Shown piece by piece: positions 18,175 to 48,150 of a DNA stretch of 48,150 nt. How positions within the stretch are numbered: position 1 is the first letter of the stretch; each line of letters starts with the position of its first letter. The notes under the pieces were generated by a model that made no database searches, had not been told where the DNA came from, and saw only the letters and a program-made list of their open reading frames with translations. This DNA comes from a virus, in the IMG/VR virus record IMGVR_UViG_3300000115_000002, positions 1 through 48,150 of that record; one strand, 5' to 3'. A program made the translations under genes and the position numbers.

Positions 18175-19866
18175 TTAATATCCGAACTCCGTATCGGAGG
18201 GTGTGTAAGCCTGTTCCCTTCGTAAGTTTCTAAATTGACTGAATATGTCATTTACTTTAGGTCTAGACATAATTAAATATCTTAATGCATCATACGCATG
18301 ATCAGGTGCATGTGTATCTACATCTTCTGGATTAGATCGATCCAGAGGAATACATTGAAGTTCGCGTATCAGGTTAGGGCAGCAGTTAAATATCTGTATC
18401 TTAGGCCTTCCGCTTGGCTGTACTCGCAAGTATTCGTGGATCTGTATTTTTCCTTGTATCCGATTTTTATCGGCCCTACGCAGTTTATGCCCTGCTCTAA
18501 GTAGTGTCTCCCCTACTGTAGGGCCTGTAGTCCCTGTTCTGTTCCATGCGGCAGTATCTAATACGCCTTGAACTGAAAAGGGATCTTGCAATTCCATATT
18601 AATCAATAATTGTGCTAAGTCAACACCAGTTAGATTCTTCTGATATAACTCTCTGTAAATTATCAAAGTTCCATCAGAGGGATCTAAGGCTCCCCAAACA
18701 CAAGCACTCTCTGAAGCGTATCCATAGTCAATACCCTTCACTCTCTCCCAATGCACTGGTATATCAAAAGGTGTAATAACATGAGTCTCTACTTCAAACT
18801 CTGTAAACGCTGCACCCTCTGTAACATCCCAATTACCTTCCAGCAGTTGTTTTCTTTGCACTGGAGGTAGTGCTTTGAGCATCTGCTCATATCTTCCATC
18901 CTTTGCTAGATATGGATTGTCTTCTAATCTAGCAGGAATAAACTTTCTTGACAACCCATCATGGCCTAAAAAAGACTCATTAGGAGGACAAGGATTGATA
19001 TATCTCTTTCTTACCCAGCTTGATCCTGCTCCTCCTGGGTTGGCAGTACATCTCATATAAGGTGTAATATTAGGATCTGTTGTTCTTAAACGAGAAGATA
19101 AATAGTTCCATGCAAACTCTGTTGCAAGGTGTGTAATCTCATCAAAACCAATCCAGCTATAAGCTTGGCCTTGGTAACGATAAACATCTGCATCTCGTTC
19201 AAGGAACCCAAACTCTACCTTAGCTCCACTAGGGAAAGTCCAAACTTTCTCTACTTCCCGAAATCTACATCCTGGAAAAGCTTTTGGATATAATTCTCTA
19301 CTTTTATCTATAAGTTCTCGTAGCTCTGGCATAGATCTTCTGATTACCAAAGCACGATGAGCTTCTTTATGAGCGTACCTAAGCGGATCAACGATCATCG
19401 CATAGGATTTACCACCTCCTGCTGCACCTCCGTAGAGAACGTCTGTTTCAGGTGCTGCTAAGAATTCTGTCTGTGGCCCTTCGTTAGGGCTAAAGATAAC
19501 ATTTTTATTTTCTAATTCTTTTTGTAAAGATTGTGGTAAACTCTCTACAGTATCAGAAGTAACTATCTTACCTTCTTTAGGACTTTCTTTATTATCTATT
19601 TTAAATAATGTAGATCGTGAATTCTTTAATGATACCTTATGAGACTTTAACTTAGCCTCTGCTTTCTTTATAAGTCTTTCTTTACTTTTAACACTTCTAT
19701 TAGCTTTTAATCTTTCTTTAGTTACAGAAGAATAGTTGTATCCTTTAGACTTGACTCCTTTCTTTCGACCGCCTTTCTTCTTAGGCGTTCCATCAACCTT
19801 TAGAATAAACTCTCCGTTAGCATCCTTTAGGTAGTTTTCAGGATTTACTTCCCATTCTTTCTGCAT
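18175..19866 (-). CDS. terL: Terminase large subunit (563 aa)
   Basis: Walker A YGGAAGGGKSY, a downstream ATPase/nuclease-type pattern, and a Lys-rich ~130-aa N-terminal extension. Confidence 0.9.
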   Translation of the reverse strand: MQKEWEVNPENYLKDANGEFILKVDGTPKKKGGRKKGVKSKGYNYSSVTKERLKANRSVKSKERLIKKAEAKLKSHKVSLKNSRSTLFKIDNKESPKEGKIVTSDTVESLPQSLQKELENKNVIFSPNEGPQTEFLAAPETDVLYGGAAGGGKSYAMIVDPLRYAHKEAHRALVIRRSMPELRELIDKSRELYPKAFPGCRFREVEKVWTFPSGAKVEFGFLERDADVYRYQGQAYSWIGFDEITHLATEFAWNYLSSRLRTTDPNITPYMRCTANPGGAGSSWVRKRYINPCPPNESFLGHDGLSRKFIPARLEDNPYLAKDGRYEQMLKALPPVQRKQLLEGNWDVTEGAAFTEFEVETHVITPFDIPVHWERVKGIDYGYASESACVWGALDPSDGTLIIYRELYQKNLTGVDLAQLLINMELQDPFSVQGVLDTAAWNRTGTTGPTVGETLLRAGHKLRRADKNRIQGKIQIHEYLRVQPSGRPKIQIFNCCPNLIRELQCIPLDRSNPEDVDTHAPDHAYDALRYLIMSRPKVNDIFSQFRNLRREQAYTPSDTEFGY

Positions 19867-20086
19867 CTATTATCTTTTTTAATCCTTGATGACTTAGCTT
19901 ACGACCTGTTTGATACTCTAGCCAAGCTGAACCCTCTCTTAAAGAAAGAGTCTTTTCTGAAACTAATCCTTTTATTTCAGATAAGGCTTTAAGTTGCTCA
20001 GGTATTTCATTAAGCATTTTAGGGTTTTCTTCAGATATTTCATAACCAAAAGGAATGACACTACTAAGCTTCTGCCGCCTGTTCAA
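19838..20086 (-). CDS. Small HTH DNA-binding protein (82 aa) between terS and terL
   Basis: IPFGY...SLREGSAWLEYQTGRKLSHQGLKKII resembles the recombinase-domain HTH of serine recombinases. There is no catalytic domain. Confidence 0.4.
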   Translation of the reverse strand: MNRRQKLSSVIPFGYEISEENPKMLNEIPEQLKALSEIKGLVSEKTLSLREGSAWLEYQTGRKLSHQGLKKIIDAERMGSKS

Positions 20087-20450
20087 TTATTATCTCTTCT
20101 TTTGCAGGTAGTATAAATACACCACCTTGAACTTTGTGATTAACATCTAACCTGTCAGTCTTGCCTAGTCCAATACGATCTAGAATAGTTTGGGCTGCTT
20201 GAAGTCGTACATTGGCTTGAGGAACTGGCTGATTAGAATTCATTACCTCTACAAGTTTTAAAGCGGCTTGAGGAGCAGACTCAGCTAATATATTAGAGGC
20301 TAAGTCAATGATCTCATTCTTCAATGATTTCACAACCTGCCAATGATTACCTGAATAACCTGCAAGCTCTGCTGCTTTCTTTGGATCACCCCCTGATTCA
20401 ACAAGATATCCTAAAAAATCTTCTTGTTTCTCTGTCAACTCTTTTTTCAT
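20064..20450 (-). CDS. terS: Terminase small subunit (128 aa from ATG 20450)
   Basis: MKKELTEKQEDFLGYLVESGGDPKKAAELAGYSGN is the typical terS HTH signature. The track start at 20486 is the TTG of a -35 hexamer. Confidence 0.75.
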   Translation of the reverse strand: MKKELTEKQEDFLGYLVESGGDPKKAAELAGYSGNHWQVVKSLKNEIIDLASNILAESAPQAALKLVEVMNSNQPVPQANVRLQAAQTILDRIGLGKTDRLDVNHKVQGGVFILPAKEEIIIEQAAEA

Positions 20451-20457
20451 ACTGGTT

Positions 20458-20486
20458 ATTATAGGGTATAAATGAGGTTTTGTCAA
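20458..20486 (-). promoter_or_regulatory. Perfect sigma70-consensus promoter driving terS and the structural arm
   Basis: On the minus strand: TTGACA (20486-20481), 17 nt, TATAAT (20463-20458). The ATG at 20450 follows 7 nt after the -10. Confidence 0.8.
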
Positions 20487-20497
20487 CTACTTTCTAC

Positions 20498-20526
20498 TTG
20501 ACAAAACCTATTTTCACTACTATAAT
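20498..20526 (+). promoter_or_regulatory. Perfect sigma70-consensus promoter pointing into the non-coding region and early arm
   Basis: TTGACA (20498-20503), 17 nt, TATAAT (20521-20526). Confidence 0.8.
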
Positions 20527-20987
20527 ATTCCTGAACCCACCAGGGTTCACTACCACTTATAGGTAACTTTAAAGTTCCGCAGAAATACTTCGGAGTTGCG
20601 GCCTAAACCTAGTTGACACTCTGAAGTCCTTTGAAATGTTCGTCATTGCTATATATATACGGATAGCCCCCGTGGGCACCTGCGTACCCAGGCGCGTGTG
20701 CGTGTATACTTTAAAGTATTCTATAGTTTACCTAAAAGAATATACTTCAAAGTATTCAATAATCCTCCAAAGTTTCCCTCCAATAATATTCTAAAGATCT
20801 CCGAAGTCTAGTTTACAATTAAATATAAACTCTAATGAGACTCTGTAGTAAAAATTTTACTTCAGAATACTCTATAGGTTTCAATAGCTTCCAGTGTAAT
20901 TGTCGCTGTCCTTTCGGCAAACTGGCCGATCAATGCCAAAAATAAAAAAGTGACCCGTAGGGTCAAAAAATAATTTGAAAAAAAAAT
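20527..20987 (+). promoter_or_regulatory. ~460-nt non-coding control region: palindrome array, GC-rich island and direct repeats. Candidates are an operator array, origin, genome terminus or structured leader RNA.
   Basis: No credible ORF. Seven ACT-N4-AGT-type sites, a 17-nt direct repeat TATACTT(T/C)AAAGTATTC at 20705 and 20741, a GC island at 20661-20705, and a 5' hairpin at 20532-20549. Confidence 0.6.
20941..20965 (-). terminator. Hairpin plus T-run oriented for the minus strand (an orphan terminator-like element)
   Basis: Stem TGACCC / GGGTCA (20951-20956 / 20960-20965) with a 3-nt loop. On the minus strand it is followed by CTTTTTTATTTTT. Confidence 0.4.
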
Positions 20988-21015
20988 TTGACAATCGAAA
21001 AAGCTGTGCTAATTT
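20988..21015 (+). promoter_or_regulatory. Sigma70-type promoter with extended -10 for the first early gene
   Basis: TTGACA (20988-20993), 16 nt, TGcTAATTT (-10 at 21010-21015). Confidence 0.6.
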
Positions 21016-21063
21016 TGAATGGCATCGACGGCATCAGGCCGAAGAGCAATCGGAGTTTTAACT

Positions 21064-21369
21064 ATGACAAATAAATATGATAACATTGATCAGAATAAAA
21101 AAGCATCGTTTCGACAGTATGACTTTACTGTTTATAAATTAACTCTTCCTCTTGCAAAGAAAAGAAGAATAACTGAAAAAACAAAGGAAGGTAAAGTTAA
21201 CCCTAAGTTTAGAGTGCTGAAAGCTAGAGTCGGTGCTAGTTTATCCAAATTCTATGCTGATCAAGATAAATTTCTGACCCATGGCGATGTTCAGAAGTTT
21301 ATTGCTTCTCCAGTAATACCTAAAGAAGTATTGGAGTTAATTGATCTCGATCTTAAAGCAAAGAAGTAA
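21064..21369 (+). CDS. First early protein (101 aa from ATG 21064), basic
   Basis: GGAG RBS (cggagttttaactATG). The track start at 21019 would sit on the predicted transcription start. Confidence 0.55.
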   Translation: MTNKYDNIDQNKKASFRQYDFTVYKLTLPLAKKRRITEKTKEGKVNPKFRVLKARVGASLSKFYADQDKFLTHGDVQKFIASPVIPKEVLELIDLDLKAKK

Positions 21370-32056: not shown

Positions 32057-32532
32057 TAGTTAAAGCGAGGCGCAGAAAACCTAGAGTTAAACGCCCCTAC
32101 TTAAAATACAAAGGCTATGATTCAATATGGGAAGCAGTATTACATGAATCAATTTTAAAAGATTGGACTCATCATACTAATAAAATTCCTTACGTTGTAG
32201 AGCATACATATGAACCAGACTTTGTACGAAAACTTGAGAACAAAATTATTCTTTTAGAATCTAAAGGGAGGTTTTGGGATCACGCTGAGTACAGTAAATA
32301 TATATGGGTTAAAAAGAATCTACCTGCCAACTATGAATTAGTTTTTTTATTTGCTAATCCTTCTGCTGCAATGCCAGGAGCAAAGCGCAGGAAAGATGGA
32401 ACTAAAAGAAGTCATGGTGAGTGGGCATCAGCTAATGATTTTAGATGGTTCAGTGAAGATAGCATACCAGATTCTTGGATTGATCCTGAAGCTAGAGAAA
32501 TACAAGATAAACTAGACTTGGAGATAGAATGA
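32056..32532 (+). CDS. T7 endonuclease I (gp3)-like Holliday-junction resolvase. It has no canonical start codon. Coordinates assume initiation at ATA 32056.
   Basis: My translation of the frame open from 32011 to TGA 32530-32532 is ...KARRRKPRVKRPYLKYKGYDSIWEAVLHESILKDWTHHTNKIPYVVEHTYEPDFVRKLENKIILLESKGRFWDHAEYSKYIWVKKNLPANYELVFLFANPS...HGEWASANDFRWFSEDSIPDSW.... It aligns by eye with T7 gp3 (SGLEDKV, YTPDF, ETKG). It is absent from the ORF track. Confidence 0.7.
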   Translation: MVKARRRKPRVKRPYLKYKGYDSIWEAVLHESILKDWTHHTNKIPYVVEHTYEPDFVRKLENKIILLESKGRFWDHAEYSKYIWVKKNLPANYELVFLFANPSAAMPGAKRRKDGTKRSHGEWASANDFRWFSEDSIPDSWIDPEAREIQDKLDLEIE

Positions 32533-48013: not shown

Positions 48014-48150
48014 TTAAGCCTTCATAAATCCTGGATATGTGTTAGTTTGTTCATTATATTGCATTGCTTGCCCCATAGCCCAATTACTTATAGGATCTAA
48101 AGGATTTATAGCTATCATAGGTGCGCCTTGTACTTGTTCTACAGGTAATA
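48014..48150 (-). CDS. 3' end of the wrap-around gene whose 5' part is 1..1165. Nt 48046-48150 duplicate nt 1-105.
   Basis: The frame continues ...QAMQYNEQTNTYPGFMKA then TAA (48016-48014). Confidence 0.7.
   Translation of the reverse strand, partial: LPVEQVQGAPMIAINPLDPISNWAMGQAMQYNEQTNTYPGFMKA
48046..48150. repeat. Terminal overlap copy 2 (identical to nt 1-105)
   Basis: Direct comparison of the window ends. Confidence 0.95.

Follow-up and report, generated by a model that had tools for sequence, protein, structure and literature searches.

The locus considered here raises the question of what function resides in a non-coding stretch filled with short palindromes, at positions 20527–20987 of the IMG/VR virus record IMGVR_UViG_3300000115_000002, of which 48,150 nucleotides (nt) were analyzed (this whole stretch of DNA is termed the window below). 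The original prediction, made from the DNA letters alone, had offered four possible answers: an operator array, a replication origin with iterons, the genome ends or a packaging signal, and a long structured leader or non-coding RNA. The stretch proves to be a genuine cis-acting DNA module that departs strongly from chance and is family-wide in its distribution. With regard to its role, we tentatively favor a DNA-level packaging-initiation or genome-junction region adjoining the early promoters, a reading to which we give a little less than an even chance, and within which we infer the terminase as the binder, a cut at the region, and the type of end (pac, short direct terminal repeat, or cos).

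The window is a podovirus of the HTVC103P/HMO-2011 type, and its large terminase (TerL) is 63–66% identical to those of the pelagiphages HTVC115P, 103P, and 104P, and 45–48% identical to those of HMO-2011-type phages of SAR116 and Roseobacter. The 105 bases at 1–105 recur identically at 48046–48150, an overlap located inside the late gene block, which shows that the window was assembled as a circle from a genome of 48,045 bp and that its ends are uninformative on the physical termini. Genes run leftward from ∼20450 (the small terminase gene terS, a small helix-turn-helix gene, terL, and the portal, capsid, and further genes) and rightward from 21064 on, where the early block encodes a T7-like replication set, i.e., a gp2.5-like single-stranded DNA-binding protein, a gp4-like primase-helicase, and a gp5-like polymerase, along with endonuclease VII, a Cas4-like exonuclease, ribonucleotide reductase, and ThyX. 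No phage RNA polymerase was recognized in this rightward block, and a scan of its ten large open reading frames (ORFs) revealed no initiator. Because the leftward late block and the rightward early block run apart here, the non-coding region is the exact point of divergence. It is also the longest ORF-free gap in the window (532 nt), as had been claimed, with the runner-up (32057–32350; 294 nt) located inside the early/replication block.

Neither the region nor its consensus core has a blastn match among 50,697 phage records; relatives are reachable only via terS and the first early protein, and ∼160 IMG/VR loci were gathered by anchoring on these two. One architecture is common to more than 60 distinct relatives. 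Read in the orientation of the window, it begins with back-to-back near-consensus promoters, a hairpin with a GC core where the rightward transcript starts, and a few sites of a palindromic motif; it continues with the block CTRGTTRACAC...AAAATGT...GTATATATA and then a GC island; and it ends with another array of this motif, which is longer, evolves fast, and in many cases includes a second TAGTTKACA box, and with a second promoter. The core of this arrangement comprises ∼90 nt, namely GTTGACAC, AAATGT, (TA)5, and the GC island with its invariant TGGSCACCTGC. The conserved block that precedes the island (Table 1) is the most conserved non-coding segment by blastn and contains invariant columns in a 62-sequence alignment. 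An nhmmer profile of the core, built from 62 distinct sequences, matches the cultured phages CRP-1 (E = 5e-7), HTVC115P (0.0016), HMO-2011 (0.0025) and, weakly, HTVC103P (0.014), and every one of these matches sits in the non-coding divergence region. The architecture spans cultured phages of SAR11, SAR116, and Roseobacter, i.e., three host lineages. In both CRP-1 and HMO-2011, palindromes of the form CA(C/T)TTAAAGTG or CACTTAAGTG stand beside the core, and the motif family is thus also old. Conservation in related phages, which the original prediction had proposed as a check, is found for the palindromic sites and for the GC island (present at 20661–20705, as described), both of which recur across the more than 60 relatives; the sites, which had by implication been treated as isolated to one genome, belong to a family-wide architecture.

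Within the GC island, a run of G or C comes just before the near-invariant motif, and the orientation of this run flips among close relatives. At 20664–20672, and at the equivalent place in L006, L018, L007, and L012, an 8-mer is found in either orientation (TACCCCCA or TGGGGGTA) among close relatives, while further lineages carry G-run-TA-C-run hairpins, which suggests repeated template-switch inversion in a quasi-palindrome.

The seven palindromic 10-mers described for the region are all present, together with an eighth strict site, ACTCTGTAGT, at 20840, and they form two arrays (Table 1), such that the core is flanked by three sites on its left and by five to six on its right, and the promoters P(+) and P2 flank the arrays. 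The 17-nt repeat TATACTT(T/C)AAAGTATTC at 20705 and 20741 (family D1) was likewise found, with a third, degenerate copy at 20856, as was the recurrence of TCTATAG at ∼20720 and ∼20870. A second CTAGTTTACA box lies within the right array, at 20808–20817. Over the whole window, ACT-N4-AGT occurs at the level of chance (23 found vs. 19.8 expected), and six of these 23 copies fall inside the 461 nt of the region, where the motif is ∼27-fold enriched (Poisson P = 2e-8, with the rate taken from the rest of the genome). Shuffling, by which the original prediction had proposed to measure the density of these sites, argues against chance, as none of 5000 dinucleotide shuffles of the region reached six copies. 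Of the 18 copies of the tighter form CTYYNRAGT in the window, 7 lie within the region (P = 3e-11).

Equivalent arrays occur in the relatives, with a mean of 7.5 sites per locus. Across 54 loci, adjacent CTYYRRAG sites are spaced by 9–11, 19–24, 28–34, 38–43, and 48–52 bp, and spacings of 13–15, 25–27, and 45–47 bp do not occur. In 14 divergent representatives, the Rayleigh statistic peaks at 10.25–10.5 bp (R = 0.53; none of 5000 null draws was as high). This period of ∼10.3–10.5 bp places the sites on one face of the double helix, which suggests that protein binds to them cooperatively or that the DNA is bent. The motif, (A)CTYYRRAG(T), is essentially near-palindromic. An early count over 34 related loci had given strongly directional, T7-like right-hand sites; this description was rejected, as the 14 divergent representatives show only a weak bias on the right side (40 forward, 22 reverse, and 28 symmetric; p = 0.03) and none on the left, and the bias is confined to the window's own clade.

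Table 1. Features of the non-coding divergence region and of the adjoining small-terminase gene (window coordinates).
Feature	Position	Strand	Description
terS	20064–20450	−	128-aa small terminase with N-terminal helix-turn-helix; candidate binder of core and/or arrays
P(−)	20458–20486	−	Consensus sigma-70 promoter, TTGACA-17-TATAAT, 12/12 matches; predicted to serve terS, terL, and structural genes
P(+)	20498–20526	+	Consensus sigma-70 promoter, TTGACA-17-TATAAT, 12/12 matches; reads into non-coding region
5′ stem-loop GAACCC-ACCA-GGGTTC	20533–20548	+	At predicted 5′ end of P(+) transcript
Left array	20566–20627		ACTTTAAAGT (20566), ACTTCGGAGT (20587), ACTCTGAAGT (20618); spacings 21 and 31 bp
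Conserved block	20608–20659		CTAGTTGACAC (TTGACA 20613–20618), GAAATGT (20633–20639), (TA)5 (20650–20659)
GC island	20660–20705		Near-invariant TGG(C/G)C(A/T)CCTGC at 20673–20683
Right array	20708–20868		Sites at 20708, 20744, 20764, 20798, and 20840, plus degenerate ACTTCAGAAT at 20859
Hairpin TGACCC-GTA-GGGTCA	20951–20965	−	T-run on minus strand only; terminator-like for leftward transcription
P2	20988–21015	+	TTGACA, 16-nt spacer, TGcTAATTT (extended −10); read from sequence

Of the four possibilities first put forward, genome ends or packaging fits best, given that the core is shared with the packaging and structural module of HMO-2011 and that the ends of phiM6 and PaP3 are in equivalent places. 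The packaging and structural proteins of the window and HMO-2011 are 31–50% identical overall (portal, 50%; TerL, 47%; capsid, 43%; TerS, 36%), while the DNA polymerases share 22% identity over 313 amino acids (aa) and no hit was obtained for the primase-helicase. According to the literature, nothing but the module for structure and packaging is shared (10.1101/2019.12.14.876532). Because the core is shared with a phage whose replication proteins are barely related, it goes with the packaging module, which favors a role in packaging. The assignment of terS itself is based on PHROG 2538 (6e-7) and a match to Pfam Terminase_2 that falls below the cut-off of that family (E = 0.005), and in the PDB the protein matches the solved small terminases of NV1 (9.5e-5) and PaP3 (0.003).

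The genome ends of three phages with related terminases bear on this reading. In phiM6, the TerL of which is 45% and the TerS 36% (E = 2e-18) identical to those of the window, the pac cleavage assigned by PhageTerm falls 600 nt upstream of terS, within the divergence region (PMC6256558). The TerL of MQM1 is 42% identical to that of the window, its small terminase is counted as homologous, and its genome has 327-bp direct terminal repeats (PMC10410586). The TerS of PaP3, which is homologous to that of the window, binds a GC-rich 20-bp cos sequence specifically (PMC7672466), and the cos of this phage is in the equivalent place, i.e., between diverging early and late blocks and beside consensus promoters and CTTAAG palindromes. 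The ends of phiM6 and PaP3 thus both lie in the non-coding region equivalent to that of the window.

The island is also a place where contigs break. The relatives L065, L068, and L069 end inside it, and L152 starts inside it. Among the ENA contigs with an identical terS, one has a clean deletion of 20642–20748 (107 nt), another has an N-gap over 20652–20748, and two end at 20672 and 20708, while, on the early-gene side, contig starts fall at 20731 and at exactly 20749, the center (ACTTC/AAAGT) of one of the palindromic sites. Three assemblies share the 20749 boundary, the deletion junction in L248 being ambiguous by ≤3 nt (TTC microhomology). The loci that are anomalous over 20642–20749 (L248, L251, L252, L250, L262, and L263) stem from independent marine assemblies. 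If the ends are of the cos type, the GC island and the recurrent hole over 20642–20748 would be indirect evidence of the cut site. Nothing was retrieved when metagenomes were first scanned for a 42-mer specific to the window, and full-length relatives are cut at arbitrary places. The clustering of contig ends was considered as proof of physical ends and set aside, since it is suggestive in several lineages but 43 contigs of the best-sampled subfamily (23 from IMG/VR and 20 from metagenomes) read through the island.

Several further observations, along with this read-through, weigh against a packaging or junction site. The contig ends, which are scattered rather than piled up, demonstrate no physical terminus; other contigs cross every break point (20749 included), and the breaks could be due to branching of the assembly graph at the boundary between conserved and variable sequence, or to Illumina bias at GC-rich inverted repeats. 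A homology of the phiM6 left end to the core, proposed by eye, was rejected when nhmmer gave no support over either the whole genome or the 2.5-kb junction; phiM6, with its mapped pac region, thus has homologous terminases and gives no hit with the core profile. PhageTerm calls differ among relatives (pac vs. direct terminal repeat), and BLASTP with the N-terminal 211 aa of the PaP3 TerL detected no similarity to the TerL of the window. In HMO-2011 and CRP-1, the core is located 4.5–8 kb from terS; its position follows the point of divergence and not the terminase gene. Finally, the helix-turn-helix of TerS is nearly unchanged in L064, though the array motif there is TTTTAAAA-like; TerS may consequently read the core and not the arrays, and the arrays may then be due to another factor or to curvature alone.

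The transcriptional setting of the core is equally well defined. The plus-strand promoter named in the original prediction is indeed perfect, and it has a mirror-image perfect partner on the minus strand, P(−), the two together forming a 33-nt imperfect inverted repeat (I1). Relatives keep P(+) as TTGACAAA...TATAAT/TATACT, and nearly all of them keep P(−). The −10 hexamer of P(−) ends 7 nt ahead of the terS ATG (20450), which would leave the terS message with almost no leader or none at all, and most relatives have the same geometry. At the opposite side of the region, P2 precedes the first early gene (ATG at 21064, GGAG at 21052); its hexamers match the consensus at 8 of 12 positions, under the threshold of the promoter scan, and relatives keep a TTGACA box at its position. 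The TTGACA box at 20613 was also considered as a sigma-70 promoter and rejected, the sole −10-like hexamer (TAAAAT or TGAAAT) being 13 nt off, with no better partner on either strand. This non-promoter box is overlapped by the third site of the left array, and no array site overlaps the −35 or −10 hexamers of P(−), P(+), or P2, the closest approaches being at +34 relative to the start of P(+) and ∼120 nt ahead of P2. The hairpin TGAACCCACCAGGGTTCA, noted at 20532–20549, is present there, and its outer stem shows compensatory changes among the relatives (GAACCC/GGGTTC, GTAACCC/GGGTTGC, AGCCC/GGGCT, GACC/GGTC, and ATGGCCC/GGGTCAT). At the position of the right-hand hairpin (Table 1), relatives carry a different one, GAGCCTTCGGCTC, without the T-run; there is no leftward gene to its right. 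No plus-strand terminator was found ahead of P2.

Likenesses to known systems can be drawn from these features. One is to the concatemer junction of T7, which likewise is non-coding and joins the terminase end of the genome to the early-gene end. As in the window, the T7 ends have arrays of short motifs (CCTAAAG and CCCCCATAGGGGG, vs. CTYYRRAG here) on both sides of a segment with a C-run/G-run (C5/G5) hairpin, strong host-polymerase promoters adjoin, one promoter reads across the junction, and a T7-like replication module is found in the same genome. In T7, the SRL and SRR arrays flank a terminal repeat, which holds this hairpin, with phiOR on one side and phiOL and the A0–A3 promoters on the other. 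The T7 repeats, however, are direct copies of one heptamer set ∼12 bp apart, whereas those described here are near-palindromic with a phase of ∼10.5 bp; unlike T7, the window has an HMO-2011-type terminase (Terminase_6N), the transcription of which runs away from the junction, and it has no recognized phage RNA polymerase. What the arrays do in T7 is, to our knowledge, not settled either, and our literature search on the function of T7 SRL/SRR or pacB found nothing relevant. In SPP1, the Terminase_2 small subunit G1P binds pacL-pacC-pacR, and pac overlaps the 5′ end of gene 1. Such SPP1/SF6-type pac sites resemble the present region in the adjoining small-terminase gene, in short boxes on both sides of a central segment, in phased or bent DNA, and in a TerS with an N-terminal helix-turn-helix (weakly matching Terminase_2 here), although the window has a wholly intergenic region with three promoters, and the box sequences are unrelated.

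The cos of lambda consists of cosQ-cosN-cosB, with R sites and a bend made by IHF, and is situated upstream of Nu1. Both would have, directly upstream of the gene for the small terminase, a GC-rich site (the cut site in lambda), repeated sites for this protein, and bent DNA, the equivalents in the window being putative. The lambda R sites are 16-bp, non-palindromic, and on one side only, no promoters lie inside cos, and the terminase families are unrelated. The Bruynoghevirus PaP3/LUZ24 type has the same order of terS, small gene, and terL, but its cos is ∼2 kb from terS, with tRNA genes between, and PaP3 has no sequence similarity to the core. The non-coding junctions of phiM6 (L235/L236), MQM1 (L240, 61300–62900), and PaP3 (L242, 1–1650) are 0.8–2.5 kb long and are packed with arrays of 6–10-bp motifs (CTTCAAGT and CCTAAGG; CCTAGTGGG and CCTTGGAC; and CTTAAG, respectively) and with consensus promoters; in MQM1 and phiM6, short repeated 8–10-mers and C-runs fill the large non-coding regions.

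At a packaging or junction site of this kind, the ∼90-bp core would be recognized by the small terminase, and the cut by TerL would fall within it or close by. An oligomeric protein would occupy the phased near-palindromes that flank the core, or these would bend the DNA, in either case on one helix face, and the arrays so bound or bent would shape a nucleoprotein complex such as that of SPP1 pacL-pacC-pacR or lambda cosB. P(+) and P2 would be parts of the junction, just as phiOR and the early promoters are parts of the concatemer junction of T7, and the P(+) transcript would begin with a stabilizing 5′ hairpin and then cross the core towards the early genes.

The alternatives differ in how much of this evidence they can accommodate. 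A discrete structured non-coding RNA or a long structured leader from P(+), in which the ACT-N4-AGT sites would be RNA helices, draws on the perfect promoter and the covarying 5′ hairpin, and on a single sequence that folds better than its shuffles (z = −3.3 for 458 nt and −3.1 for 188 nt). The low folding energy arises from copies of the palindromic motif pairing mutually (e.g., 20587–96 with 20618–27), and these partners are not kept complementary in relatives. RNAalifold, applied to 12 diverse sequences, returned the 5′ hairpin, which is the sole well-supported conserved helix, and a weak 4-bp helix around the island, with a consensus of only −5.6 kcal/mol; searches of Rfam gave no match at the gathering score (hits in E-value mode were noise), and ARAGORN reported nothing. 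The missing plus-strand terminator before P2 and the 10.5-bp phasing, which is a property of duplex DNA, also speak against an RNA, and the core is conserved as primary sequence, a DNA signal rather than RNA. The 5′ hairpin noted in the original prediction hence stands, while a structured RNA is the least probable of the explanations considered. More of the data can be reconciled with operators for a small dimeric regulator polymerizing along the DNA to time the three promoters, which we consider unlikely though far from negligible. The 59/82-aa helix-turn-helix protein or the conserved first early protein could be such a regulator, and it could shut off P(+) and P2, release or activate the late P(−), or block read-through. 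Ribbon-helix-helix proteins such as omega or ParG bind arrays like these, in which the sites are on one helical face, often 9–10 bp apart, and in mixed orientation. In agreement with operators, the sites lie between three strong promoters, two opposed perfect promoters call for temporal control, and the CTTAAG-type palindromes of PaP3 cluster at its consensus promoters, ∼1.4–1.6 kb from cos. The phased DNA sites keep the operator array of the original prediction plausible, but none of them covers the core elements of P(−), P(+), or P2, no regulator family was recognized for the candidate proteins, and the best-conserved ∼90-nt core is left unexplained.

The core is likewise the difficulty for a replication origin, since it is shared with HMO-2011 although the replication proteins are barely related or undetected, and so does not track the replication module. 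An origin of the T7, T4, or ColE1 type, in which P(+) would supply a primer or R-loop at a (TA)5 unwinding element and the GC island, with the phased sites as accessory or iteron-like elements and replication co-directional with both gene blocks, is in our judgment a distinctly unlikely alternative. Promoter-primed origins have precedent, and the window combines a T7-like replication module, without a phage RNA polymerase, with a strong promoter followed by an AT step and a GC block. The minimum of the cumulative GC skew also falls here, although it is confounded by the switch of coding strand at the same place. The iteron origin named in the original prediction fares poorly: the repeats are 8–10-bp near-palindromes vs. 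direct iterons of 17–22 bp, no DnaA box (≤1 mismatch) occurs in 20487–21018, and no initiator was recognized in a scan of the ten large early ORFs. The secondary origins of T7, phiOL and phiOR, are also at genome ends, so that an origin and a junction may coexist; more generally, these functions need not be exclusive, if the region is analogous to the T7 junction, in which ends, promoters, and secondary origins are combined.

A variant of the packaging or junction reading couples it to transcription. Here, host RNA polymerase from P(+) would have to cross the core for the cut to be made, and 20642–20748 would be physically unusual in virion DNA, a proposal that we consider very improbable. By analogy, it would be the host-polymerase counterpart of phiOR and the concatemer-junction pause in T7, a correspondence we regard with equal doubt. 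The unusual segment might consist of very long single-stranded cohesive ends, or of a gapped or hairpinned end removed by library preparation, either of which seems similarly remote; such a segment would explain the shared 20749 boundary, the contig with the 107-nt "deletion," and the gaps at the island.

Two small genes adjoin the elements discussed above. The ORF between terS and terL (19838–20086) encodes 82 aa from a TTG or 59 aa from an ATG (as in the ENA contigs), with a segment that appears helix-turn-helix-like by eye, and PaP3 and HTVC115P likewise have a small gene in this position. The first early protein (21064–21369; 101 aa) adjoins the array and is kept across the phage group. 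Searches of Pfam, PHROGs, and PDB sequences returned nothing usable for the 82-aa protein or for the first early protein family. In one subgroup (L117, L136, L137, L139, and L144), an upstream ORF has a similar tail (...HGEIQKFF...), followed by a K/S/P-rich region, the coding DNA of which is full of the CTYYRRAG motif.

Phages of the HMO-2011 and HTVC103P types are among the most abundant virus groups in ocean viromes, and our literature search found no description of their genome ends, packaging signals, or promoters. If the region is an ordinary pac site, the finding would be useful rather than surprising. The helically phased palindrome arrays offer a clean substrate for finding the protein that binds them, and the core is the DNA on which the terminase or another factor should be tested. 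The back-to-back perfect promoters, along with a seemingly leaderless terS, raise the question of how the late genes are timed in phages without an RNA polymerase of their own. A non-coding core of ∼90 nt is common to phages of SAR11, SAR116, and Roseobacter and is better conserved than most of their proteins, and it provides both a handle for mapping termini and a point of orientation for the metagenomic genomes of this phage group.

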